The notes beneath the pieces were generated by a model, which saw only the letters and a program-made list of their open reading frames with translations, made no database searches and was not told the origin of the DNA. A program made the position numbers and the translations under genes. 42,942 nucleotides of DNA, from positions 1 to 42,942 of the IMG/VR virus record IMGVR_UViG_3300045999_003241. One strand, written 5' to 3'. This document shows positions 3,546-42,096 of the stretch, piece after piece. The first letter of the stretch is position 1. The number at the start of each line of letters is the position of its first letter. Origin of the DNA: a virus (Duplodnaviria > Caudoviricetes).

Positions 3546-3637
3546 CCTGCGCGAACAGTTCAGGGCTTCTATCAACACACTAACCAAGGTAATACGATGA
3601 GTAATCAAATTATAGACGAATACCATAAATTTGTAGA
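3531..3637 (-). ncRNA. Candidate oop-like antisense RNA (~3602 to ~3531) with its promoter and terminator
   Basis: Minus strand TCTACA-N17-TATAAT (3637-3609); hairpin 3540-3565 followed by TTTTGTTTTT on the minus strand. Confidence 0.55.
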
Positions 3638-5915
3638 ATCAAAGCGGATTTTATCAAAATATCATGGAATTGACGTGCCAATTGCGGATATTAGCAACGA
3701 ATTATTCGATTTTCAAAAGGTCATTGTTCAATGGGCATTGAAACTTGGACGTGCTGCTATTTTTGCAGATACGGGATTAGGAAAAACAGGTATGCAATTA
3801 ACCTGGGCCAGACACATTGCGAATCATACGAACGGCAATGTTCTTATTTTGGCCCCTTTGTGTGTCGCTCATCAAACAGTAAGTGAAGGTAAAAAATTCA
3901 ACGTAGATGTGAATTATTGCCGGTCCCAAGATCAAGTTAAATCAGGGGTCAACATTACCAACTACGAAATGTTGAAAAACTTTGATGTTTCGACTTTTAC
4001 TGGAATTGTCCTCGATGAGTCGTCAATTTTGAAGAGCTACATGGGAAAGACTAAGCGCGAAATTATTGAAGCATGCCAGTCGGTCGAGTATCGACTAGCA
4101 TGCACGGCAACGCCTTCCCCTAATGATTATCTTGAACTTGGTAATCATGCCGAATTTTTAGGCGTAATGCCATCCAATGAAATGATTATGCGGTTCTTCC
4201 AGAATGACACTATGGAAGCGGGGACTTACGTTTTAAAAGCGCATGCGGCTACGAAGTTTTGGGAATGGTGTGCAACTTGGTCGATGTGCGTTTCAAATCC
4301 TGCCGATCTTGGCTTTGACGGATCTAAGTACATTCTGCCAGGGATTCATCAGGAATTTATTGAAGTAAGCACAGATGGACTTCCTCCAGCAGAGGGTGAG
4401 CTTTTTAGAACCGTCACAATCAATGCAACATCAATACACAAAGAAGGCCGAATCACAATTGAAAGGCGAGCAGAGGAGGTAGCAAAGCTGGCAAATAGCA
4501 ATATGGAGCAATGGCTTGTTTGGTGTAACACCAATTACGAGGCTGATTCGCTCAAAGGGCTTATCCCTGATGCCGTTGATCTGCGAGGATCAGATTCTAT
4601 TGAGAAAAAGGAATCTGCCTTGAATGGGTTTATTGACGGGTCTATTCGAGTTCTTATCACTAAGCCTTCAATCGCTGGAATGGGGCTAAATCTACAGAAC
4701 TGTAGAAATATGGCATTTGTTGGGCTGTCATATTCCTATGAAGATTACTACCAGGCTATTCGCCGTTGCTATCGCTTTGGTCAAAAACGACAAGTTAATT
4801 GCTACGTTATGGCAGCAGATTCCGAACGATCAATTTTAAAAATAATCCAAGAAAAAGAAAGTGCCCACAACAAAATGAAAACGGAAATGACAAAAGCAAT
4901 ATCTGACGCGCATCTTAGAACAACGATGATTAACGATCAACCTTACCACGGATTTGAGCAAGGCGAAGATTTTACTTTACATCACGGCGACTGCGTGAAT
5001 GTCGCATCAAAAATTGAATCTAATTCAATCGGTTTTTCAGTCTATTCACCTCCTTTTTCAAACTTATATATTTACTCGGACAGTGAATATGACATGGGCA
5101 ATTCATCCGATGATGGTCAGTTCATGGCGCATTACGCCTACTTAGCAGAGGAATTGTTCCGAATTACAAAACAAGGCCGACTAACTGCCATTCATTGCAA
5201 AGATTTGCCTATGTATAAAGGCCGAGATGGTGCGGCTGGTCTGCGCGACTTTCCGGGCGAAATTATCAAGATGTACGAGTCAAAGGGTTGGCAATTTCAT
5301 AGCCGGATAACTATTTGGAAGGACCCCGTCATAGAGATGCAGCGCACCAAAAACCACGGGCTTCTTTACAAGCAACTCTGCAAAGATAGCGCAGCATCAA
5401 GACAAGGAATGGCAGATTACTTAATCGTGATGCGCAAGTGGGATGGCGAGAACGAATGGGAGTCTGTAACTCGTGACGGTGGCGAAAGGTTCTTTGATTA
5501 TATTGGATCATCGGCGCACGGACCAACGGCAAAAGACCTCGTGCGAGCTAGGAATGATAAAGAGCGCGAACGGCTGTATTCAATCGCGGTTTGGCAACGA
5601 TATGCATCTCCAGTTTGGTTTGATATTGACCAGACTAACGTCCTTAACTATCAACTGGCGCGTGAGAATAATGAGGAGCGCCACATTTGCCCATTACAAC
5701 TAGATGTTATCGAGCGCGCAATTGAGCTTTGGTCAAATCCAGGCGATTTAGTTTTTAGCCCATTTACAGGCATTGGATCAGAAGGCGTTGTCGCATTAAA
5801 AATGGGACGAAAATTCGTCGGGTCCGAGCTAAAAAAATCTTATTTTGATATTGCCAAGCGCAATCTGCACGATTCTAAGAGGGTCACAAAAGACCTTTTT
5901 AGCGATGCAGCTTAG
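3597..5915 (+). CDS. SNF2/SF2 helicase fused to an amino-DNA methyltransferase (beta class, SPPF)
   Basis: Helicase motifs DTGLGKT, LDESS, TATP and QAIRRCYRFGQ; MTase motif IV SPPF followed by motif I PFTGIGSE. Confidence 0.9.
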   Translation: MSNQIIDEYHKFVESKRILSKYHGIDVPIADISNELFDFQKVIVQWALKLGRAAIFADTGLGKTGMQLTWARHIANHTNGNVLILAPLCVAHQTVSEGKKFNVDVNYCRSQDQVKSGVNITNYEMLKNFDVSTFTGIVLDESSILKSYMGKTKREIIEACQSVEYRLACTATPSPNDYLELGNHAEFLGVMPSNEMIMRFFQNDTMEAGTYVLKAHAATKFWEWCATWSMCVSNPADLGFDGSKYILPGIHQEFIEVSTDGLPPAEGELFRTVTINATSIHKEGRITIERRAEEVAKLANSNMEQWLVWCNTNYEADSLKGLIPDAVDLRGSDSIEKKESALNGFIDGSIRVLITKPSIAGMGLNLQNCRNMAFVGLSYSYEDYYQAIRRCYRFGQKRQVNCYVMAADSERSILKIIQEKESAHNKMKTEMTKAISDAHLRTTMINDQPYHGFEQGEDFTLHHGDCVNVASKIESNSIGFSVYSPPFSNLYIYSDSEYDMGNSSDDGQFMAHYAYLAEELFRITKQGRLTAIHCKDLPMYKGRDGAAGLRDFPGEIIKMYESKGWQFHSRITIWKDPVIEMQRTKNHGLLYKQLCKDSAASRQGMADYLIVMRKWDGENEWESVTRDGGERFFDYIGSSAHGPTAKDLVRARNDKERERLYSIAVWQRYASPVWFDIDQTNVLNYQLARENNEERHICPLQLDVIERAIELWSNPGDLVFSPFTGIGSEGVVALKMGRKFVGSELKKSYFDIAKRNLHDSKRVTKDLFSDAA

Positions 5916-26055: not shown

Positions 26056-28995
26056 ATGCCAATTAACGACCTTACAGCAGACACACCACAATCCAACGGC
26101 TTAATCAATCCAACACCGTCGAATAATGGCGCGACTGTTGGCGCTTCTACGTGGAATGTGACACCAGATCAAACGGTAGAAGGTCGGGTAGAAAGCATTA
26201 CCAAGAAAAATTCACCGTTAATGCAATTGGCAGAGACACGCGCAGCGCAAAAGATGAATGAGCGCGGTCTATTGAATAGCTCAATGGCGATCGGTGCGGG
26301 CCAAACTGCATTGTATGAAGCTGCCTTACCAATGGCACAGCAAGACGCGAATACCTTTGCGCGCGCGGGCGAGTTCAATACTAGCCAGAAAAATCAATTC
26401 GGACTGCAAGCGAATGACCAAGTGAATGCATTGGGTCGATTGGATAAGCAGCAAGGCTTTGATGTTGCCAAGATTGGGCTACAGCAAAACAATGACCTAG
26501 CGAAAATGGGTGTTCAGCAAGGTTATACGCAAGCAAACATGGCTACGCAACAGGGCTATGACGTTTCCAAGATGGGAATTGACCAGCAGAATATCCTTAA
26601 CCGTATGACGGTTACGCAGCAAAACGACTTAGCTAAACTCGCTACAAGTCAAGGCTACACGTTGCAGAACATGACAGCGCAGCAGATTAACGACCTGCAA
26701 AAGATGACTGTAGCGCAGGGATTTGACATCACTAAAATGGGATTAGAGCAGCAGAATATCCTTAGTCGGATGACTGTCGATCAGCAGAACAAAGTCGCAC
26801 AGATGGCGATTAGTCAGGGTTACGACTTGACTAAAATGAGCGCGCAACAGATTAACGATCTGGCAAAAATGGCTCAAGCTCAAACATTCGATCTAGCGAA
26901 GATGGGTGTCGATCAGCAAAATGTTCTCAGCCGTATGACTGTGGATCAGCAAAACAAAGTCGCGCAAATGGCTATCAGTCAAGGTTACAACTTGGAAACC
27001 TTGAGTGTTCAGCAAATCAATGACTTGGCGAAGATGACACAGGCCCAAGGATTTGACCTTACTAAGATGGGCGTTGAACAGCAGAACGTATTAAGCCGCA
27101 TGACCGCACAGCAGCAGAATGATGTTGCGAAGATGGCTGTCGCGCAAGGATATGACCTCACAAAAATGTCAGTCCAGCAAATCAACGACCTTGCAAAAAT
27201 GTCTCAGGCGCAGGCTTTCGACATTACGAAGATGGGCATTGACCAACAAAATGTGTTGGGTCGGATGACAGCGCAACAGCAGAACGACATTGCGAAGATG
27301 GCAGTCAGTCAAGGGTATGACTTGACGAAGATGAGCGTTCAACAGATCAACGACTTGGCTAAAATGAGTCAGGCACAGACGTTTGATATTGCCAAGATGG
27401 GATTGGAACAACAAAACATTCTAGGCAGAATGACTGTTGACCAACAAAACAAATTGGCGACGATGGCAGTAAGTCAAGGCTACGACTTAGCCAAGATGAC
27501 CGCACAGCAAATCAATGATCTATCGAAGATTGCAGTCACACAAGAGAATCAATTAAAGCTCTTAGGCGAACAATACAAGTTTGATGTCGCAAAAATGGGC
27601 GTTGATACTGCCAACACGTTAAGCAAGATGTCAGTACAGCAGCAACAAGACATTGCGAAAATGGCGATTAACCAAGGTTATGACATCGCCAAAATGTCAG
27701 TCGATCAGATCAACAAAGTCGCATTGACCAACCTGCAAAACGACAACCAGATCAAAACACTTGGCATTCAAAACGGCTTTGATGTCTCCAAGATGAATCT
27801 TGATACGGCATTGACCATTCAAAAAATGGGAGTGCAGCAACAGCAAGACTTAGTAAAACTGGCGACTTCTCAAGGGTACAACCTCGAAAGTATGTCTGTA
27901 GCGCAAGTCAATGACTTGGCTAAGCTCAATCTGCAAAGCGACAATCAATTGAAAACGCTCAGTGCGCAGTATGGCTTTGACGTAAAGAAAATGAGTCTTG
28001 ATACTGCTTTGACACTGCAAAAAATGGGTGCAGAGTATCAAAACGAAGTCGCAAAAATGGCAGTAAGTCAGGGCTACAACCTGCAAAACATGAGTGTCGA
28101 TCAAGTCAATAAAATGGCATTGACAGTGCTTCAAAGCGACAATCAACTCAAGGCATTAAGTGCGCAGTTCGGTTTCGATGTTCAGAAAATGAACGTTGAT
28201 ACAGGCTTAACGCTGCAAAAAATGTCTGCGCAACAGCAACAAGACATCGCTAAGATGGCGATCAATCAAGGCTACGACCTTACTAAAATCTCTGCGCAAC
28301 AGGTCAATGATCTAGCGAAGATGTCTCAGTCACAGGAATACACCGAGAAGAACGCAGCAACAGCGGCACAAGTTCAAAAGGAACGTGACCAAGTTGCGAT
28401 TCAAGCAGACAAGGATACCGCGGCGACATTAGCCAAAACAACGGCTGATCGTGATGCTTTTGCAGTCAATGCAGCCAAAGACACAGCGGCAAAACTGGCA
28501 GAGACGCAGCAGAAATACGCCGACGTGCAGATTGCAGCGAACAAGGCGAGTGCGTTATTTAGTGCCAATGTTCAATCTGAATTGGCGCAATTAAACAATG
28601 AAAACTCAGCAATCCTGAATAAATCGAATTACGCAGTCGGGGCAATGTCTAAATACAGCGATGCGCTCAATAACATCGCTATGAGCACCATGAGCCAAGA
28701 AGCGAAGAATCAAGCGCAGGCAAACGCTTTCACGGCTTATAAGGATCAATTGCGATTGGTTAGTTCGCTCGGCAACGTGCAAGACCTTTCTACTTTGCTG
28801 AACTTCTCGCCAACGGAAACGCCGCCTAGTGGTCCTACTGGCCCTTCTTTGGTCGCAACAAACGATGCGCCAACACAAGCGCCTAACGGCACGTTCACGA
28901 CAAATACACCAGACAAAGGATTGATCTACACGCCTTATGGTGGCGGCAGTACCAAAGGCTTAATCAATCCAGACTCACAAACCTATTACGCTTAA
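26056..28995 (+). CDS. Probable ejection/internal virion protein with 57 tandem 11-aa repeats
   Basis: N-terminal MNERGLLNSSMA...DA domain, Q/N/M-rich hendecads; position among ejection genes. Confidence 0.75.
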   Translation: MPINDLTADTPQSNGLINPTPSNNGATVGASTWNVTPDQTVEGRVESITKKNSPLMQLAETRAAQKMNERGLLNSSMAIGAGQTALYEAALPMAQQDANTFARAGEFNTSQKNQFGLQANDQVNALGRLDKQQGFDVAKIGLQQNNDLAKMGVQQGYTQANMATQQGYDVSKMGIDQQNILNRMTVTQQNDLAKLATSQGYTLQNMTAQQINDLQKMTVAQGFDITKMGLEQQNILSRMTVDQQNKVAQMAISQGYDLTKMSAQQINDLAKMAQAQTFDLAKMGVDQQNVLSRMTVDQQNKVAQMAISQGYNLETLSVQQINDLAKMTQAQGFDLTKMGVEQQNVLSRMTAQQQNDVAKMAVAQGYDLTKMSVQQINDLAKMSQAQAFDITKMGIDQQNVLGRMTAQQQNDIAKMAVSQGYDLTKMSVQQINDLAKMSQAQTFDIAKMGLEQQNILGRMTVDQQNKLATMAVSQGYDLAKMTAQQINDLSKIAVTQENQLKLLGEQYKFDVAKMGVDTANTLSKMSVQQQQDIAKMAINQGYDIAKMSVDQINKVALTNLQNDNQIKTLGIQNGFDVSKMNLDTALTIQKMGVQQQQDLVKLATSQGYNLESMSVAQVNDLAKLNLQSDNQLKTLSAQYGFDVKKMSLDTALTLQKMGAEYQNEVAKMAVSQGYNLQNMSVDQVNKMALTVLQSDNQLKALSAQFGFDVQKMNVDTGLTLQKMSAQQQQDIAKMAINQGYDLTKISAQQVNDLAKMSQSQEYTEKNAATAAQVQKERDQVAIQADKDTAATLAKTTADRDAFAVNAAKDTAAKLAETQQKYADVQIAANKASALFSANVQSELAQLNNENSAILNKSNYAVGAMSKYSDALNNIAMSTMSQEAKNQAQANAFTAYKDQLRLVSSLGNVQDLSTLLNFSPTETPPSGPTGPSLVATNDAPTQAPNGTFTTNTPDKGLIYTPYGGGSTKGLINPDSQTYYA
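26449..28329 (+). repeat. 57 x 33-nt coding repeat with 165-nt and 198-nt super-periods
   Basis: Units such as SQGYDLTKMSV / QQINDLAKMSQ, counted by hand with no indel in register. Confidence 0.9.
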
Positions 28996-32022: not shown

Positions 32023-35000
32023 ATGTCATTTATAGACTTTGATTCCCCAAAAAAACCGAAGGGCTTTATAGATTTTTCGCAGCCAATAGAGCCAAAGGCG
32101 GCGCCACAGAGCCGCAATGCTTTTGCGGTGGCTAACGATACCATTATTGAATTTGCCAATGCTGCTGCTAGTGTAGTTGGAGCAATTGGTGATTTTGTTT
32201 CTCCCGGCAACAGAGTATCTGAATCAATTAAAGAGTTCACGCAGTACGGCGAAGAAAAGCAAAGTGATATAGTAAAAGCAGGCAAGCAATCTTTTAGATC
32301 AAATCTTGAAGAATCTAATGGGATTAGTGATGATCTTTCCGCAGTATGGTCATATCTCAAAGAAAATCCTTTACAGGCCGCAGCACAGGCAGGCGGTAGT
32401 TTTGCCGGCCCAGGTCTTATCACATCAGGAACTAGGCTTGCACTTGGCGCGGCTGGAGCAACAGCTAAAGTTGCAACAAATACCGCTAGAGTCGCAGGTG
32501 TCGTAACTGGTGGCGCGGCTGGCGGCGGTGATGCTGCTGGTGATGCCTATTCTCTGGTTTCTCAAACTCCTGATAATATTTTATTGAAGAATAAAGAGGT
32601 TGCAGAGCTATATGCAAATGGTATGTCAATGGAGGACATACGGCATAAAGTAGCTACAACAGCAGCACGGCAAGCAAGTATATTGCCTGCGTTAGCTGGC
32701 GGTTTGTCCGGTGCATTTGGTGCTGAAAAGTTACTTGCTGGTTCTGCTGCAAAGCGCGGTATAGGTGCGGCACTTAAAGTTGGCGGTGTTGAGGGTGCAG
32801 GCGAAGCCTTTGAGGAAGGGTTAGCTCAATTTGAAGGGCAGCGCGCCGCACAAGAATACGACCCTTCCATAGTCCCAACAAAAAATGTAATGGCTATGGC
32901 TGCTATGGGCGGCATTATGGGCTTTGGTACGGGCGCAGGGATTCATGCGGCTACCAACAAGCCAGAAGAAAAGATTGAACCACCGAAAAACATCATGGAC
33001 CAAACCGACATTGATAGCGTTATCAATGCGGCAGAGAACAGCATAAACCAAGCGCCAATACAGCAAAGAGAGTCAACACCGATTGACGATCCAATGCGCT
33101 TAGAAGTTATCAATCAATTGCCTGAATCGGTGCGCGATACTGCTATTCGTGCGTATAACCTCATTATCGATGATGCGACACCAAAGGGATTAAAGAAGTT
33201 CAATCAAAGACTTCTTGACGATATTCTTGAGCAAGCTGCAAGTGAAATGCAGGCAACTACTGCGCCGATTGTTGAGTCAACGATTGAACCGCCAAAAGAG
33301 TTGGAACCGTTTGAGCAGATTAAGCAACTGCAATCAAAGGTTAGTGACCTTGAAGCCAATAATCCATTTGAGCAAGATCACATGGATTCGATCGCTGAAT
33401 TAGAAGCGGCAGTAGCGAATTTCACGCTATCAAAGATTGAGTCTGGCGAAATGCCGGTGTTCTCTAACAATGGCATTGTTACGGTAGTTACTCCATCTGC
33501 AAAGCAAGAAGGATTGTTTCAAGTTACCCGATACAACAAAAACGGGATATTTGGCGATACTGAATATGCGAGTATTGCGGAAGCAGTTGATAAAGAAGGA
33601 CTAGCTTACATTGCGCCATTGGGTAACGATGAAGCCAATACTGTATTGACTAAGGTATTAGATGCAGAGTCATCCTTTCAAAGCCGACTAGCTGAACAAA
33701 AGCAAGTTGAAAGCAATCGTGTATTGGCTGACATTGAAACAACTGATAATCGCGTGGCATTTGAGCAAGAGAAGTCACGGGTAAATCAGCGTAATGCAAT
33801 CATCGATTCAATCCTATCGAGTGATGCGGCTGTCGGTATGCGCCCTGCGCAAATCGCGGATATGGTCAAAGTCTCGATGGCTGAGCAAGGCTATGCAAAT
33901 CCAGTCTTGAACGATTCTGAGTTTGCACGAATCAAGCGATTTAATGACATTGCTAAAGCGGAACCAGTTGCAGAGACAATAGACGAATCGAATTTAGAAG
34001 GACAAGCACCGTCAAGCAATCTGTCTGAACTTGTACCAGAAAGAAAAATTGATTCAAGTAAATCCAATGTGATCGCCACGGCATTGCCTGCGGATTTGAT
34101 TAGTGCTGCGCAAGAGTCGGAAACCAATAAAGACTTTTGGAAGGCATTAACTGCTCGTAAAGTTCCATTGGGCGCCGAACGTAATGCACTAATGGCGGCT
34201 TACAAAGAACTGAAAAAGAACATTGAAGCAGCGCCTAGCAATCCTACTGTCACGAATGAAGCCGAGATTGCAAAGACTGTTGCACCTGAAAGCAAACAGG
34301 AAGTCGCGCCTACTGCAATTCCAGCTACAGTTACAGGCGTAACACCTACTGAAATTACTAAGTCGGCAATTCAAAACAGTGCGTCAAGCGTAACGGCTAC
34401 AGAGATACCAAACAGCGCGTCAACTATCAGCACGACTGCAATTCCAAAGACCGAGATTGCAAGCAGTGCAACGAGCATTGCGCCTACTACGATACCTGCC
34501 AGCGCATCAAGTGTTGCGCCTACAGCCATTCCAGAAACGACGATGCGCGACAATGGCACACTAAGCATAAAAGGCGAAACAAAAGCCCTGCAAACGCAAC
34601 TGAAAGAAGCGGGAATACCAAGTATTCCAAGCAATGACGGTGTGACTGTTGGCGCTAAGAATGTCGAGAAGGCGCAGGCGTTTATTGCGTCGATGGAAAC
34701 ATCATCAGATGACAATAGCAGCACTCCGAAGATTGAGGTTTATGAAGGAAAGGGGCTTATTAAAGGCAAGTACATGGCAAGTATTGATGGCGATACCGTA
34801 CCAAATGGCCCTTTTAATACGCAAATTGAAGCGCAAGACGCCGCCACAAATTGGATCGCATCAAAAGAAAAGGCATCACAAGCAAATAAGTTGGAGAGGG
34901 AATTAAAAGATTCTTACATTACAGCTTTGCGCAATGGCGAAAGTCTGAACAGCAAACAGATTGAATCGTTAAATCTGCGTGATGGCTATAGTGATATGCG

Positions 35001-38000
35001 ATGGTTTATTGGGGCGGCTGCCGATCTTTTCCAAGTTCCGTCTCGCCAGATTCGACCATACGTTAATGAGATAATTAAAAAATCATATAACGACATGGGA
35101 ACCGAGCGCGAGTTAGTGCCGACAAACACAGCATTAAAAGCAATTGCACAGAGTTTAAATTTATCCAATCCAGCACAGCCAACAGCACAGAAAAACGGTT
35201 TAACAGTCCCATACAAGAAGGGCAAAACAGGCGCAGAGACAGCACGCAACAAACTCGCCTATGAAAATCCATTCCTATCATTCTTGGCGACTCATGGCGT
35301 ATCTATTCAAGACCGTGCAGACGTTGGCGGTGAGAAGGGACGCGCTAAGTTGATACCTGGTCACGGTCCACTATTCAGAAAGAACGGTATTCGTTTGGAT
35401 GAATTGGCACAATTGGCACTCGAAAAAGGTTTTATCACGCAAGCGCAGATGGATAGCGAAACCGATAACGGCGGAGTAAATGCCTTGTCTGAAATGATCG
35501 GCAAAGCATTGCGTAATGAAGTCGTTACCGGTGTTAAAGATGTCATTGCAAACCGAGACATTGACCAAGAATTAATGCAAGAAGCGTCAAGCATCGGCAT
35601 TGATATTGCTGGTAAAAATTCTGATGAAGTGTATGATCTTGTGAAAGAGTATTACGACGAGAAGGCTTATCAAGAAGCGATTGATTTGCTTAATGAGTTA
35701 AATGAAGATGCTAAGATTTCATCGCAAGAAAACAATTTGCGAGAGCTAGATTTTGCAATTGAGGAATTAAATAATGCAGACGAAAATGACACCAGAAGCG
35801 AAAGCCAGACTAGCAGCACTGCCACGAGAGGAGAGGGACAAGCTACAAGCAGCAGTCAAAGCACTCCTGAAACTACCACCGAGCAAGCGCAAACAAGCGA
35901 TGCAGGCGGCGGGAATGAAAGTTTCAGATTAACAGGCGAAACCGCACAAGAAGCGCGGGATCGCATCGCACAGCAAGAACGCGAAGCGCAAGCACGCACC
36001 GAGGACGAAGCACGTTTAGCAGCAGCGGAACGTGATAGCACCGTCCAAAGAGAAATAGATAACCGTCAAGATGTGCTTGCAGATAGCTTTTCATTGACTG
36101 CCCAAGTCAACGATCAAGCGCAGCAAAAGAAAAACGACGATCAGACATTCCAGAATCAATTGGCGGGGCAGGCTGATATTTTCTCAAGCAATCCAAACGA
36201 AGCCGCAAAAGAACAAATCCAATCATCCGACTTAACGCCTGCTGAGAAGTTGGCAAACATTGCTGCGATCAATCGCGGTGATGTGTCGCCTGATGATGTT
36301 GCACAGGCTTTGGGAACCGAGCAGACTAGCGATGCTAAGCCTAATAAAATTGGCGATTTTGGCGAGAAGATAGGCGGGGCAAAGAAAGATGTTTGGTCTG
36401 GATTCAAAGACAAGATGGATACCGCGAAGGCGCTAGACATTACATCCGAACCATTATCTAAGTCATGGCCTGAACCTGATTACCAAGCATTGCTAGACAA
36501 TGGCGCTGATTCTTGGGCGGTTGGGTTTATGCACTCAGCACGCGATGCAGTACCACGTAAGCCGACTAAATCATACAAGCTAAAGGCATGGGCAGATGGT
36601 GTAAAAATACTGCGCAATTTTGCGGCAGACATAGCAGACGGTACGATTTCAACAGAAAAAGTTAAAGCGGAAATGCAGAGGTTGGCAGGTTTCCATTCTC
36701 CTTTCCATTGGGATGAATTATTAACTCGCATTGAACTGTATCAAGCAGTCGGACACTCTAAATCATTGGCAGATATTCGCATTAGTTCGGGCGAATACAA
36801 CATGCTAAACGGTGTTTTATACAATCCTGCAAAATTGATTTGGACGGTTGAAAAGAAAGCCGCTGCAACAGCATTTTCAAATTTCCCACAGCAACTTGCA
36901 CAAGGGGATACCAAGCAAGAAGCTATTGATGACTTCAAGGAAAAGTTTTCAAAGTTAGAGACAGCAAAGCCGGCATCAAAAGAAGTTAGCTTTGATGTGT
37001 ATTCAACTCAAGGGCAGGCAGGCTTTAAGGTTGGCAAGAAAGTAGGCCGCAATTTCATCGAGTTGGCGGGTCCATTTGATACCGTAAAAGAAGCGAGAGA
37101 GTACAAATCAAACAATCAAGATGCACTGCTTGAAAAGCTAGAAAAAACAAAGGAAATACCACGAGAACGCCGCGACATTAATAATCCTCGCGTTGGCGAA
37201 GATATGCGCAATGGTGAAGATGTAACGCCTGAAATGTTCAGTGATGCGTTTGGTTTCCGTGGTGTCGAGTTCGGCAACTACGTTGAACAAGGCAAGCGCC
37301 AATCTGATTTAAACGAAGCCTATGATGCGCTAATGGATATGGCGGCATTGCTTGGCGTACCTCCTAAGTCGATCTCTCTTAATGGGTCGCTTGGGCTGGC
37401 CTTTGGTGCGCGCGGCACTGGTGGCAAACTGGCAGCGGCCGCACATTACGAACGCGATAAAATAGTCATTAATCTGACAAAAAAATCAGGTTCAGGCAGT
37501 CTTGGGCATGAATGGTGGCACGCACTAGATAATTATTTTAGCCGCTTAGCCAAGAATCCAAGCGATATGATGACCGATCGCACAGATGTTTCATTGGCTA
37601 GTCGTGAATCAAAGTATATCTATCGTGATGAAGGTGTGCGCAAAGAAATGATTGATGCGTTTGGATCAGTCATGCGGTCTATTCGATTGACAGCGATTAA
37701 AGCCAGGTCATCAAAACTAGATGCGAAGCGTACAAAAGAGTATTGGACCACTGACGTTGAAATGTCTGCGCGCGCGTTTGAGTCTTACTTAATATCCAAA
37801 CTTCAAGATAACAATGCGTCAAATGATTATCTAGCAAATATCGTTGATCCTGATACGTGGGCGGCGGCTGAAAAATTGGGATTTGAATTAGATGATTCTT
37901 ACCCATACCCGACAGCAGGGGAAATTCCTGCTATTCGTGCAGGCTTTGATAAATTCTTTTCCGTCATTGAAAGTAAAGAAACTGATAAAGGCGTTGCGCT

Positions 38001-41000
38001 TTACAGCAAATCAAATGCAAATGAAACCAACACCGACAATGGCCTAGGCGATGTAAAAATAGTCCCTGCGGTTATCGTAGAGAAGAATGTAAAGGCTATT
38101 CTCGCAGAAGAAGGCGCGGTTCAAGTTAATGTCTCAGGGGGGAATGTAGATGTACTCAAGCAAATTGCTGAACGGTTTGGTAAAAAGATCGTATTCTTCC
38201 GAAACGTGGAAACTGATCGACCACAGAACAAGGGAATGGGCTTATCCACTGGAAGCACTCAATCTAACGCCGACACAAATGAAGGAAGCGACAGCGCACA
38301 GGGCGAGAATGGAAGCGATGAAATTACAAACGGATTCGTCACACCAAGACAGCCTAAACTTGTGTTTCTCAACATTGATGGGGCAAATCCCCTAACGTTC
38401 ATTTTAGGTCATGAATTAGGGCACTCATTAAAAATAGATGATCCTAAGTTGTGGGCTGAAATGACTGTTCAATTGCAGCCGCTTGTCCGAAAGTTTGGCA
38501 AGTATCGCGCAGATTACGGGCAAGGATTAGCCAAAGACGTTGATGTCTTGGAAGAGCTTGTAAGCGATGTTATTGGCGATAACTTCCTAAATAACGACTT
38601 CTGGCAGGACATGGCGAAGCAAAGCCAATCACTGTTCAAGCGTATCGCTGACAAGGCTATTGCACTACTCAATAAGTCAATCCGTTTAATGGTCGGGCGT
38701 GATGTGTCTATCTTCATTTCAGACATGGAAAAGGCACGTTCTATCATTGCGGGAACAATGGCTAAGTATGCCGAAGGTGCGGCGAAGGGGCGGTATGAGT
38801 CTATTGTCAATGGTACGGCACAGCGCCAAACCGATACGGCAGAGTTTAAAAAATGGTTTGGCGATTCTAAAGTGGTTGATGCTGATGGTAAGCCGCTGGT
38901 TGTTTATCATGGAACAAGTGCTGATTTTAATGAATTTTCACTGTCCAATGGTGGTGCTAAAGGAATGACGCAAGGAACGGGGTTCTATTTTGCATCTAGC
39001 GGTGAAAGAGCATCAATGTATGCTGGTGATAGTGGAAGCGTTATGCCTGTTTATTTGAATGCAAATAATCCGTTCCAATGGGGGGCTGAAAATCTAAACT
39101 TGGATGCGTTGATTTCTGGTGTTATGCCAGATTCAATTAAGGCATTAGTTAGAAGGGAGGCAGGAATCCCGTTTGTTAAGAATGATGCGGCCTATCCAGA
39201 TGAAAAGATAGCGAGAATTTTTTCTGATGCAGTAACAACTGTTTTGCAAAAAAAGGGTTTTGATTCGATTATTGCCAATAGAGGATTAGGCAGTAAAACC
39301 TTTATAGTTTTCTCTCCAAATCAAATCAAATCCGCAACAGGCAATAACGGCAAGTTTGACGGTGGCAATTCGGATATTCGCTACAGCAAATCGAAAACAG
39401 GCGCAGCCAATCCGCACTCATGGGATTCGCCAGAACAAACAAAGTTCGATGACTTGCTTTACAAGTTCCAAGACAAGCACATCGACACTAAGCGCGTCAT
39501 TGATGCGATCGACAAGAATATTTCCGATGATCTGAATGTGTACGAGAAAGAAGAAGCGTTTCACAATCGCGCAGCATCACGAACAAAGGAATTTATCAAT
39601 AAAGAACAGCGCCCATTGCTTGATGCGATGCGCGAGCTTGATATTGATATGCCGACACTTGAAGAATACTTGCACGCGAGAACAGCAGAAGAAACAAATA
39701 TTCTGATTGCTTGGCGTAATCGTGATACTGGAATCTTGCAAGATGGCGGTTCTGGTATGAAAACAGCCGATGCAAGAAAGTATCTTTCAAGCCTGGCACC
39801 AGCACAGCGCAAGAACTTGGAAGCCATTGCAGCTAAGGTTGATGCGATCGTTGAAGGCACTCGTCAAATGTATGTTGATTACGGCTTAGAGTCAAAGAGT
39901 ACGGTTGACGGTTGGCGCGATATGTTCGATCACTATGTTCCTTTGATGCGCGAACAGGATAGTGATGTTCAAGGAATGGGCGCAGGTCAAGGCTTTAGTG
40001 TTAAAGGTAAAGAAGTTAAAGGTCGCACAGGTTCTACCCGTAAAGTCGTGGATATTTTTGCCAATATCGCTATGCAGCGCGAGAAGGTGATTGTTCGTGG
40101 TGAGAAAAACAAAGTTGCTTTGTCCCTATTGGGCTTGGCGAGTGCTAATCCTAATCCTGAATTTTGGAGTGTCGATAAGCCAGAAACAAAGCGTGTTTAT
40201 AATCCTGATACTGATTCAGTCGTTGAGCAGGCTGATCCATTATTCAAGTCTCGCGCAAATGTAATCGTTGCGAAAGTCAAAGACAGCAAAGGCAAGATTG
40301 AAGAAAAAGCCGTTATCTTTAACGAGGATAACGCACGCGCAATGCGCATGTCAGAAGCATTGAAGAACTTAGACACTGTTCAAATGAATGGTTTCATGGG
40401 CGGCATGGCGAAGATTACGCGCTACTTCTCTGCAATCAATACTCAATACAATCCGATTTTTGGCGTGGTCAACTTCATGCGCGATTTCCAAGGCGCGATG
40501 ATTAACTTAACCAGCACGCCGTTAAGCAATCACAAGGCAGAAGTGGCAAAACATACGCTGTCTGCTTTGAAAGCGATTTACTTGGATGAGCGTGCAGGTA
40601 GAAAAGGAAAAGAGAACAATTCAGAAATGGCGGCATTGTGGCGCGAGTTTGAATTAGAAGGCGGTCCAACTGGCTACCGCGATATGTTCGCCAATAGTCA
40701 AGATCGTGCAGATGCCATTGAAAAAGAATTGAATCCGACTAAATGGATGGATAGTCCATTGGGCAAAGTCTTTACTGCAAACGGTATGCTGAAAGTCCCA
40801 ATGGCACAGGCGCAAAAACAAGCATCTGGCATGTTTGGAGTGCTTAACGACTACAACAACGCAATGGAAAATGCTATTCGTTTGGCTGCGTATAAGGTTG
40901 CCAAAGACAAGAATTTTGGTAATTTAAGCAACCAAAAAGCAGCAAGCCTAGCGAAGAATCTAACCGTCAACTTCAATCGTAAGGGGCAAGTTGCGCAGCA

Positions 41001-42096
41001 GGTAGGCGCGTTATACGCTTTCTTTAATGCATCTATGCAGGGTTCAGCGCGACTCAGTAAGACACTATTCACAATCGAGAATGGCGATGTCAATACAATC
41101 CGTTTAAGCAGTACCGGCAAGAAGATTGTTTATGGTGGTGTCATGCTTGGCGTGGTTCAAGCCTTAATGCTTTCTGCTGCTGGATTTGATGATGAAGAAC
41201 CGCCTGAATTTGTGCGTGAACGTAGCTTGATTATTCCGACCGGTGGGAAGTCGTACATAACAGTACCAATGCCGCTTGGCTTGCACGTCCTCCCTAACTT
41301 GGGGCGCATACCAACTGAGTTTGCTTTAGGTGGATTTAAACAACCAGCGAAAAAGTTGGTTCATTTGATGGGCTTAACTGTTGGCGCATTTAATCCAACT
41401 GGCGGCGGTGCATCGTTATTGCAAGCGGTTTCACCAACGGCAATTGATCCTCTTGCAGCTCTTTCGGAAAACAAAGATTGGACCGGCAAGCCAATTGCCA
41501 AGGAATCGCACAATCAAGCGTTACCAGGTCATGCATTGACAAAAGACACGGCAAGCTATGTATCAAAGGTGCTTTCTGAGGGAATCAATTATATGTCTGG
41601 TGGCACCCAATACACAGCAGGCGTATTAAGTCCGACACCGGACCAGATTGATTATATCTTTGGTCAAGTAACGGGCGGCGTAGGTAGAGAAGCGATTAAA
41701 GCACAGCAATCAATATCGACTGTATTCACTGGCGAAGATTTACCAATCAATAAAATTCCATTGGTGGGCAGGTTCTACGGAAATACAGAATCACAGTCAT
41801 CACAAGCGAATCGTTTTTATACAAATCTGAATCTCTTGAATGAGCATGAGACAGAGATCAAGGGAATGATGAAGGATCGCAAAGGCTTAGAAATTGCGCG
41901 ATACATGAGAGAAAATCCAGAAGCGCGAATGTACGAAGCTGCAAACAAAGTTGAGCGAGATATTCAGAAATTGCGACAGCAAAAACGCGACTTACTGAAA
42001 GCCGATGCGGATCCTGCGCGAATCAAGATGATCGACAATCAAATCAAAATGCGGATGACTCGATTTAATGAAACATTAGACTCAGTTAGCAAGTAA
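32023..42096 (+). CDS. Giant polyvalent internal virion protein (LPD5-like, LPD1/zincin, second zincin, ART-PolyVal-like, LPD38-like)
   Basis: DFGEKIGGAKKD; RGVEFGNY...HEWWH...EMSARAFE; HELGH; WFGDSKVVD...YHGT...QIKSATGNNGKFD; NFNRKG...FFNASMQG C-terminal region. Confidence 0.88.
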   Translation: MSFIDFDSPKKPKGFIDFSQPIEPKAAPQSRNAFAVANDTIIEFANAAASVVGAIGDFVSPGNRVSESIKEFTQYGEEKQSDIVKAGKQSFRSNLEESNGISDDLSAVWSYLKENPLQAAAQAGGSFAGPGLITSGTRLALGAAGATAKVATNTARVAGVVTGGAAGGGDAAGDAYSLVSQTPDNILLKNKEVAELYANGMSMEDIRHKVATTAARQASILPALAGGLSGAFGAEKLLAGSAAKRGIGAALKVGGVEGAGEAFEEGLAQFEGQRAAQEYDPSIVPTKNVMAMAAMGGIMGFGTGAGIHAATNKPEEKIEPPKNIMDQTDIDSVINAAENSINQAPIQQRESTPIDDPMRLEVINQLPESVRDTAIRAYNLIIDDATPKGLKKFNQRLLDDILEQAASEMQATTAPIVESTIEPPKELEPFEQIKQLQSKVSDLEANNPFEQDHMDSIAELEAAVANFTLSKIESGEMPVFSNNGIVTVVTPSAKQEGLFQVTRYNKNGIFGDTEYASIAEAVDKEGLAYIAPLGNDEANTVLTKVLDAESSFQSRLAEQKQVESNRVLADIETTDNRVAFEQEKSRVNQRNAIIDSILSSDAAVGMRPAQIADMVKVSMAEQGYANPVLNDSEFARIKRFNDIAKAEPVAETIDESNLEGQAPSSNLSELVPERKIDSSKSNVIATALPADLISAAQESETNKDFWKALTARKVPLGAERNALMAAYKELKKNIEAAPSNPTVTNEAEIAKTVAPESKQEVAPTAIPATVTGVTPTEITKSAIQNSASSVTATEIPNSASTISTTAIPKTEIASSATSIAPTTIPASASSVAPTAIPETTMRDNGTLSIKGETKALQTQLKEAGIPSIPSNDGVTVGAKNVEKAQAFIASMETSSDDNSSTPKIEVYEGKGLIKGKYMASIDGDTVPNGPFNTQIEAQDAATNWIASKEKASQANKLERELKDSYITALRNGESLNSKQIESLNLRDGYSDMRWFIGAAADLFQVPSRQIRPYVNEIIKKSYNDMGTERELVPTNTALKAIAQSLNLSNPAQPTAQKNGLTVPYKKGKTGAETARNKLAYENPFLSFLATHGVSIQDRADVGGEKGRAKLIPGHGPLFRKNGIRLDELAQLALEKGFITQAQMDSETDNGGVNALSEMIGKALRNEVVTGVKDVIANRDIDQELMQEASSIGIDIAGKNSDEVYDLVKEYYDEKAYQEAIDLLNELNEDAKISSQENNLRELDFAIEELNNADENDTRSESQTSSTATRGEGQATSSSQSTPETTTEQAQTSDAGGGNESFRLTGETAQEARDRIAQQEREAQARTEDEARLAAAERDSTVQREIDNRQDVLADSFSLTAQVNDQAQQKKNDDQTFQNQLAGQADIFSSNPNEAAKEQIQSSDLTPAEKLANIAAINRGDVSPDDVAQALGTEQTSDAKPNKIGDFGEKIGGAKKDVWSGFKDKMDTAKALDITSEPLSKSWPEPDYQALLDNGADSWAVGFMHSARDAVPRKPTKSYKLKAWADGVKILRNFAADIADGTISTEKVKAEMQRLAGFHSPFHWDELLTRIELYQAVGHSKSLADIRISSGEYNMLNGVLYNPAKLIWTVEKKAAATAFSNFPQQLAQGDTKQEAIDDFKEKFSKLETAKPASKEVSFDVYSTQGQAGFKVGKKVGRNFIELAGPFDTVKEAREYKSNNQDALLEKLEKTKEIPRERRDINNPRVGEDMRNGEDVTPEMFSDAFGFRGVEFGNYVEQGKRQSDLNEAYDALMDMAALLGVPPKSISLNGSLGLAFGARGTGGKLAAAAHYERDKIVINLTKKSGSGSLGHEWWHALDNYFSRLAKNPSDMMTDRTDVSLASRESKYIYRDEGVRKEMIDAFGSVMRSIRLTAIKARSSKLDAKRTKEYWTTDVEMSARAFESYLISKLQDNNASNDYLANIVDPDTWAAAEKLGFELDDSYPYPTAGEIPAIRAGFDKFFSVIESKETDKGVALYSKSNANETNTDNGLGDVKIVPAVIVEKNVKAILAEEGAVQVNVSGGNVDVLKQIAERFGKKIVFFRNVETDRPQNKGMGLSTGSTQSNADTNEGSDSAQGENGSDEITNGFVTPRQPKLVFLNIDGANPLTFILGHELGHSLKIDDPKLWAEMTVQLQPLVRKFGKYRADYGQGLAKDVDVLEELVSDVIGDNFLNNDFWQDMAKQSQSLFKRIADKAIALLNKSIRLMVGRDVSIFISDMEKARSIIAGTMAKYAEGAAKGRYESIVNGTAQRQTDTAEFKKWFGDSKVVDADGKPLVVYHGTSADFNEFSLSNGGAKGMTQGTGFYFASSGERASMYAGDSGSVMPVYLNANNPFQWGAENLNLDALISGVMPDSIKALVRREAGIPFVKNDAAYPDEKIARIFSDAVTTVLQKKGFDSIIANRGLGSKTFIVFSPNQIKSATGNNGKFDGGNSDIRYSKSKTGAANPHSWDSPEQTKFDDLLYKFQDKHIDTKRVIDAIDKNISDDLNVYEKEEAFHNRAASRTKEFINKEQRPLLDAMRELDIDMPTLEEYLHARTAEETNILIAWRNRDTGILQDGGSGMKTADARKYLSSLAPAQRKNLEAIAAKVDAIVEGTRQMYVDYGLESKSTVDGWRDMFDHYVPLMREQDSDVQGMGAGQGFSVKGKEVKGRTGSTRKVVDIFANIAMQREKVIVRGEKNKVALSLLGLASANPNPEFWSVDKPETKRVYNPDTDSVVEQADPLFKSRANVIVAKVKDSKGKIEEKAVIFNEDNARAMRMSEALKNLDTVQMNGFMGGMAKITRYFSAINTQYNPIFGVVNFMRDFQGAMINLTSTPLSNHKAEVAKHTLSALKAIYLDERAGRKGKENNSEMAALWREFELEGGPTGYRDMFANSQDRADAIEKELNPTKWMDSPLGKVFTANGMLKVPMAQAQKQASGMFGVLNDYNNAMENAIRLAAYKVAKDKNFGNLSNQKAASLAKNLTVNFNRKGQVAQQVGALYAFFNASMQGSARLSKTLFTIENGDVNTIRLSSTGKKIVYGGVMLGVVQALMLSAAGFDDEEPPEFVRERSLIIPTGGKSYITVPMPLGLHVLPNLGRIPTEFALGGFKQPAKKLVHLMGLTVGAFNPTGGGASLLQAVSPTAIDPLAALSENKDWTGKPIAKESHNQALPGHALTKDTASYVSKVLSEGINYMSGGTQYTAGVLSPTPDQIDYIFGQVTGGVGREAIKAQQSISTVFTGEDLPINKIPLVGRFYGNTESQSSQANRFYTNLNLLNEHETEIKGMMKDRKGLEIARYMRENPEARMYEAANKVERDIQKLRQQKRDLLKADADPARIKMIDNQIKMRMTRFNETLDSVSK
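35774..35932 (+). CDS. Candidate overprinted 52-aa helical protein (+1 frame) inside the giant protein
   Basis: GAGGA SD 8 nt before ATG; MQTKMTPEAKARLAALPREERDKLQAAVKALLKLPPSKRKQAMQAAGMKVSD. Confidence 0.6.
   Translation: MQTKMTPEAKARLAALPREERDKLQAAVKALLKLPPSKRKQAMQAAGMKVSD
38150..38395 (+). CDS. Second candidate overprinted ORF (+1 frame, 81 aa)
   Basis: G-rich SD; its protein-like core coincides with a G/S/N-rich insertion in the host frame. Confidence 0.35.
   Translation: MYSSKLLNGLVKRSYSSETWKLIDHRTREWAYPLEALNLTPTQMKEATAHRARMEAMKLQTDSSHQDSLNLCFSTLMGQIP

Follow-up and report, generated by a model that had tools for sequence, protein, structure and literature searches.

A small gene missed by annotation is very probably nested, out of frame, inside the gene for a giant polyvalent phage protein, as judged from sequence comparisons among relatives. 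The window, i.e. the whole stretch of DNA analysed, was one phage contig of 42,942 bases in which terminase, portal and major head genes are present. The host gene (32023..42096, + strand) encodes a protein of 3357 aa, with LPD5, LPD1, ART-PolyVal and LPD38 domains and HExxH motifs read off the translation; with several LPD, ART and peptidase domains in one large protein, and virion genes around it, it belongs to the polyvalent proteins. The hidden ORF (35774..35932, + strand; TAA at 35930-35932) comprises 52 codons in the +1 frame over main-frame residues 1251-1303, and lies wholly within the other gene, in a different frame, with its own start and stop. Nested out-of-frame genes as such are already known; what is new is a small-protein family in a recurring linker slot. 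Elsewhere in the window, a 979-aa protein with internal repeats and weak Nif11/PepSY-like matches (26056-28995) and a 772-aa SNF2-like helicase fused to an N6/N4 DNA methylase (3597-5915) were recorded.

The arrangement described in the first-pass annotation, GAGGA followed after eight nucleotides by an ATG and 52 codons in the +1 frame, was found again in the sequence. The Shine-Dalgarno-like (SD) GAGGA (35761..35765, + strand) is separated by an 8-nt spacer from the ATG at 35774 and has a pairing energy of -6.2 kcal/mol, which falls among the values of the 13 ordinary gene starts examined; this ATG had the lowest opening energy and the best combined score (rank 1) among the 144 out-of-frame ATGs of the host gene. 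No notable promoter or terminator was detected in the surroundings of the ORF. The coincidence of the ORF with a low-complexity stretch, also remarked on in that annotation, was borne out: the two are coextensive, the main-frame linker (35773..35931, + strand; residues 1251-1303) being S/T/Q/G-rich and modelled as disordered by AlphaFold2 (modelled-region residues 189-234, pLDDT under 50). Directly upstream is a main-frame module (35242..35772, + strand) made up of an unnamed helical domain followed by an acidic 70-residue stretch, residues 1181-1250, which is the most acidic of that length in the 3357-aa protein (net charge -15). The conserved helical domain, at 35242-35560 on the 5' side of the slot, gave neither a Pfam hit nor a PDB fold match. 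The downstream main-frame module (35923..36186, + strand) is a long charged helix with G-Q-x-D-I-F at its end, and was the landmark of the slot in relatives. In many relatives this end, at 36160-36186 in the window, reads G-Q-x-[DGS]-[ILM]-F, which presumably resembles a sliding-clamp-binding motif.

The peptide encoded by the ORF is basic (pI 10.4), without Cys and without a signal sequence. A core was conserved at its residues 21-43 (R-x2-[IVL]-x2-A-[VL]-x2-L-x-[KR]-L-[PTS]-P-x2-R-x2-[VLI]-[LI]), and the hydrophobic face, R21, K33 and R39 were kept across the family. Two LP-capped amphipathic helices had been proposed; the helical character and the hydrophobic face held, and the helix count was corrected, the model giving three helices (7-15, 18-33 and 36-45; mean pLDDT 77, pTM 0.42). 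No significant family or fold match was obtained in Pfam, PHROGs, PDB or BFVD (at most a sub-threshold DUF3106 in 2 of 50 members), and Foldseek searches with the peptide model and the main-frame region gave no match at E <= 0.001. When the window peptide or region was used directly as the query, no homologue was detected in viral contigs, the protein database or GenBank phages, ESM Atlas returned a low recognition score for the window peptide with no usable match or only sub-0.9 ones, and tblastn with two called family members against plasmids and phages yielded nothing, or chance matches at E 3-5.

The low ESM Atlas score and the absence of a close homologue by direct search fit the view that there is no gene, the open and protein-like +1 frame being a by-product of linker composition, as does the codon-shuffle control that had been proposed with the ORF. 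Not one of 500 synonymous shuffles closed the +1 frame across the linker, 22% created an SD-led ORF locally, and 28-46% had an SD-led ORF of at least 50 codons, out of frame, somewhere in the gene. Openness by itself is no more than chance, and SD-led ORFs per whole gene were not above the null; it is in its peptide sequence, conservation and start site that the ORF goes beyond chance. Basic charge does not count as independent evidence, because the linker composition dictates that the +1 frame be open and K/R-rich, and the SD sequence itself favours acidic main-frame residues directly upstream. Recoded linkers, however, reproduced neither the peptide, nor the SD, nor the frame-flipped substitutions described below, and a mere by-product is considered very unlikely. 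When the giant gene of the window was scanned for SD-led out-of-frame ORFs, only the one at 35774 was credible. A second SD-led +1 ORF (39965-40087, 41 codons), over a region that is not of low complexity, is probably due to chance.

Relatives were reached through the surrounding main-frame region, which retrieved 22 proteins (the window's own included), whose alignment led to 12 DNA loci. A +1 ATG ORF of 40-61 codons beginning at the linker was present in eight of these, and the remaining four (two of them the same contig) had neither linker nor ORF. The aligned peptides from L002 and L012 (Comamonas odontotermitis) were 38% and 49% identical to the window peptide; family-profile scores were 12-13 bits for L007 and L009, about 5 for L001 and L010, and none for L003 and L008. 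A DNA pattern ending at the ATG detected seven viral loci, four of which repeat loci already in the set, and all seven carried a 40-51-codon ORF bearing the family motif; the ATG was part of the pattern, so its conservation in these loci is circular, and the ORF body lay outside the pattern. A main-frame search of 401 genomes gave five matches, namely the seed, two with the linker and two with the downstream helix only; both new linker-bearing genomes encode an SD-led family peptide, whereas the two helix-only genomes lacked the ORF. The check suggested at the outset, of whether SD, ATG and open +1 frame are conserved in homologues, thus came out in favour of the gene, an SD-led peptide being kept at the same slot in related phages and prophages.

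With profile A5, built from eight relatives with the window excluded, the window ORF ranked first among 984 six-frame segments (E 1.6e-6), and its peptide, at 33.9 bits, scored above 2000 of 2000 synonymous linker recodings (best 20.3). Over 401 whole genomes the window peptide scored 24-26 bits against a helical background of up to 28 bits, and because of this overlap its family membership rests on position and score together. Among 1.84 billion called proteins, the family profile picked out 43 clusters, most of them of 43-62 aa and matched from the start; seven were longer repeat proteins with several matched stretches, which are probably unrelated. The called-protein profile applied to the 63 loci below was only partly independent, as its members were found by a profile containing the window peptide. 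Longer called proteins carried the hairpin at the N terminus with differing extensions after it. One called protein of 246 aa (P0031) joins the +1 upstream text, the family peptide and the main-frame downstream text, which suggests an indel or a frameshifted allele. A scan with seven called proteins produced one further locus, likewise nested in the +1 frame at the slot. In class- and order-wide genome samples only the seed genome was recovered (1 of 400 scored, with one unscored, and 1 of 401). All the family members for which DNA was obtained were nested at this single slot, and loci without the ORF tended to be linker-less too. In line with the prediction that gene callers would miss the ORF, GenBank MW202426.1 has at the slot a 47-codon SD-led ORF that is left without annotation and scores weakly on the family profile (7.5 bits, the best of 10 candidates).

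A collection of 86 viral loci was fetched with the main-frame motif of the downstream helix, a criterion that takes no account of the +1 frame. Six seed-contig loci, one truncated locus, loci with main-frame stops and near-duplicates were removed, which reduced the 86 to 63 and, under a stricter scheme, 77 to 33 clusters. An SD-led +1 ORF was located directly upstream of the helix motif in 41 of the 63 loci (null 17.6 +/- 3.5, maximum 27 of 100), a set that still contains related loci, and a strong-SD ORF in 16 of the 33 clusters (null 5.4 +/- 1.9, maximum 12 in 2000). Together with the first rank of the window ATG among 144, the latter count places the start signal above chance; the presence of an ATG-ORF alone was not clearly above the null (24 of the 33 clusters versus 17.8, maximum 26). 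Family-profile matches of at least 8 bits were obtained for 10 of the 63 loci in the +1 frame, for none in any of the other five frames, and for 0.47 on average in 30 recodings. At the loci without the ORF the main frame was more hydrophobic at the slot (0.24 vs 0.14, p 0.005), a comparison that is partly circular.

The same slot also held at least five other, unrelated families of small basic peptides, each tied to one upstream main-frame cluster (loci L069-L071, L120, L147 and L150; L072-L074, L089, L100 and L102; L081, L083 and L085; L086 and L101; L121 and L134). One pair among these had a significant frame flip. The presence of several unrelated families fits a convenient site as well as it fits a partner. 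A bolder proposal is that the linker is a fixed cassette slot whose low-complexity sequence shadows small basic genes. Lineages would exchange these genes, and each would supply a built-in partner for the acidic module next to it and be shielded from loss by the host frame; the slot would then be a second exchangeable gene layer and a natural case of alternate-frame insertion, a scheme that we regard as rather doubtful. Over other low-complexity linkers of a giant gene, SD-led +1 ORFs of 92 and 67 codons (L007:6426-6701; L007:3390-3590, the latter also in L009 and L010 at 3390) had protein-like composition and no Pfam or PHROG match, and protein-like SD-led +1 ORFs of 69 and 42 codons were noted over other polyvalent-gene linkers (L059:10069-10275, - strand, and L008:3420-3545).

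Substitution patterns provided the evidence for selection on the +1 frame. In a clade of four loci (L012-L015), three of which had been found by the peptide search but also by the upstream DNA pattern, the variable columns fell on main-frame codon positions one, two and three as 18/9/62 upstream, 14/4/2 within the ORF and 8/6/29 downstream. Within the ORF, pN/pS was 0.15 in the +1 frame and 2.42 in the main frame (Fisher p 6e-7 for the flip), as expected from the earlier claim that selection acts on the other frame. The frame flip was significant in two of seven further clades (p 0.001 and 1.4e-5, the latter being another peptide family) and was not in the other five. Among near-identical relatives of the window, the three point differences in the ORF were all silent in the +1 frame, two of them altering the main protein, whereas six of eight flank differences were silent in the main frame. 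The four-locus clade, the two further clades and the window variants all point to purifying selection in the ORF's own frame. In an 18-base loose end (run X5, hand-read and ungapped), 3 of 6 residues of the +1 frame were kept via silent changes, versus 1 of 5 in the main frame. Whether the relatives P0003-P0013 could encode the peptide was also examined at the protein level only, but this test did not discriminate, as a similar excess was seen in the flanks. The first-pass annotation had described the ORF as overprinted on a linker; the nesting stands, and the direction may be reversed, with the linker as a shadow of the small gene.

The SD and ATG were kept more widely than any single peptide family. 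This would suit a reading in which internal translation itself is what is conserved, as a means to tune or protect the long mRNA, or one in which a +1 frameshift terminates the giant protein in a basic tail; +1 shifts can be stimulated by SD-like sequences. The amino-acid-level purifying selection in the +1 frame and a core conserved over 50 sequences nevertheless exceed what internal translation alone would need. As to a frameshift, a +1-frame TAA at 35768..35770 (+ strand), one codon ahead of the ATG, leaves almost no room for entering the ORF in this way; a stop at this position recurred in three of the 16 other loci, and the 60 nt upstream were free of listed slippery motifs in all 17 loci. 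Both forms of this explanation are considered unlikely.

For the product, our preferred reading is that of a partner of the acidic module. The small gene would be translated from an internal ribosome-binding site on the likely late mRNA of the giant gene, its predicted product, a small basic helical hairpin, would bind the acidic helical segment encoded directly upstream, to neutralise or chaperone it, and the main-frame linker would be largely a by-product of the small gene. This reading is favoured because the structural neighbourhood is constant while the enzyme cargo changes. The 70 residues upstream carried a charge of -13 to -17 in 8 of the 10 sites examined, and at the slot loci the median upstream charge was -10 against a background of -2. 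The conserved hydrophobic face and R21, K33 and R39 of the peptide also speak for a partner. The charge of the peptide did not co-vary with that of the upstream segment (rho -0.08, p 0.62), nor did loci with and without the ORF differ significantly in upstream acidity (p 0.10). The complete mechanism, with the peptide as a partner of the acidic module in late expression and packaging, is accordingly offered from sequence as a tentative proposal, short of an even chance.

Partnership with the acidic module is only slightly more likely than an independent role, late or nucleic-acid-binding. The gene would then be real, with a product acting independently of the giant protein, such as a late protein that binds nucleic acid or targets the host, and the linker a merely tolerated place on a late transcript; we hold this to be possible. 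The unrelated peptide families at the slot, the lack of charge correlation with the flank and the longer called proteins in which other extensions follow an N-terminal hairpin are all in keeping with it, as is the function of ComS, which according to the available text of PMC12915044 is separable from its host gene srfAB. An independent product sits less well with the nesting of every member with DNA at one slot, no free-standing copy of the family having been detected in any of three genome samples (about 400 genomes apiece), and with the lack of a fold or family match to a DNA- or RNA-binding protein.

The first-pass annotation had favoured an inhibitor or immunity protein that silences the peptidase or ART domains in the producing cell and stays linked to the effector when domains are shuffled. 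The window's host gene does have ART-PolyVal and HExxH motifs, and an HExxH motif occurred in 7 of the 8 relatives' hosts examined, but this co-occurrence says little: in the available text of PMC5512222, no domain of polyvalent proteins is more frequent than the peptidase, for which a role chiefly in self-processing is proposed. Of nine host genes scanned in relatives, two of which are cut by a contig or locus end, only three had ART-PolyVal, one 1166-aa host had neither a Pfam hit nor HExxH, and other relatives' host genes contained RadC, InPase or LPD39. The ORF occupies a fixed place beside non-catalytic helical modules, several hundred residues away from the peptidase and ART domains, and would therefore not travel with them in shuffling, contrary to the proposed effector-antidote linkage; in the window, the ART-PolyVal domain (38878..39357, + strand; residues 2286-2445) is about 1000 residues from the hidden ORF and is inherited separately from it. 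The ORF is thus neither adjacent to nor co-inherited with one effector domain, as an immunity protein or antitoxin would be, and an antidote is thought improbable.

These results add an undescribed small-protein family, and indicate that what looks like a "low-complexity linker" in a widespread class of giant phage proteins has a coding role in a second frame. The fixed sequence landmark of the slot makes systematic mining possible, and since a change of the start codon can be silent in the main frame, function is directly testable. Were the acidic-module partner model true, it would suggest how very large acidic virion-associated proteins stay folded or quiet in assembly.

Among phages, lambda Rz1 is a +1-frame gene nested in Rz, whose product partners the Rz product; Rz1 is a lysis lipoprotein, whereas the hidden peptide has neither Cys nor a signal sequence and is encoded in a linker of a giant virion-associated protein. 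The host gene shares LPD5, LPD1, ART-PolyVal, LPD38 and HExxH, in a setting of virion genes, with the polyvalent proteins that Iyer et al. 2017 (PMC5512222) described from phages and conjugative elements, and the main text of that paper has no occurrence of "overlap", "frameshift", "linker" or "disordered", nested genes being undescribed in that text. The literature searched, which covered few subscription papers, held no description of nested genes in polyvalent proteins. A similar architecture is that of comS, a gene for a small protein that lies in another frame wholly inside the giant multidomain gene srfAB of Bacillus subtilis (available text of PMC12915044); both cases consist of an out-of-frame small gene within a giant multidomain gene, but comS is chromosomal, a single known case with a tested function and with no sequence relation shown, while the slot recurs in phages and holds several families. 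Overlaps in linker frames are also described for eukaryotic viruses in the available text of PMC8227390, where the movement protein of apple stem grooving virus lies over a polyprotein linker and the hepatitis B S gene under the polymerase spacer. As here, the nested protein is conserved and the overlapping linker drifts, and in hepatitis B the linker frame is said to be the more recent of the two; those viruses have small genomes, whereas the present case is a tailed phage with a Shine-Dalgarno-led internal start. Finally, an "overlapping, alternate-frame insertion" has been engineered synthetically (available text of bioRxiv 10.1101/2024.11.07.622342), and the hidden ORF locus would be its natural counterpart.
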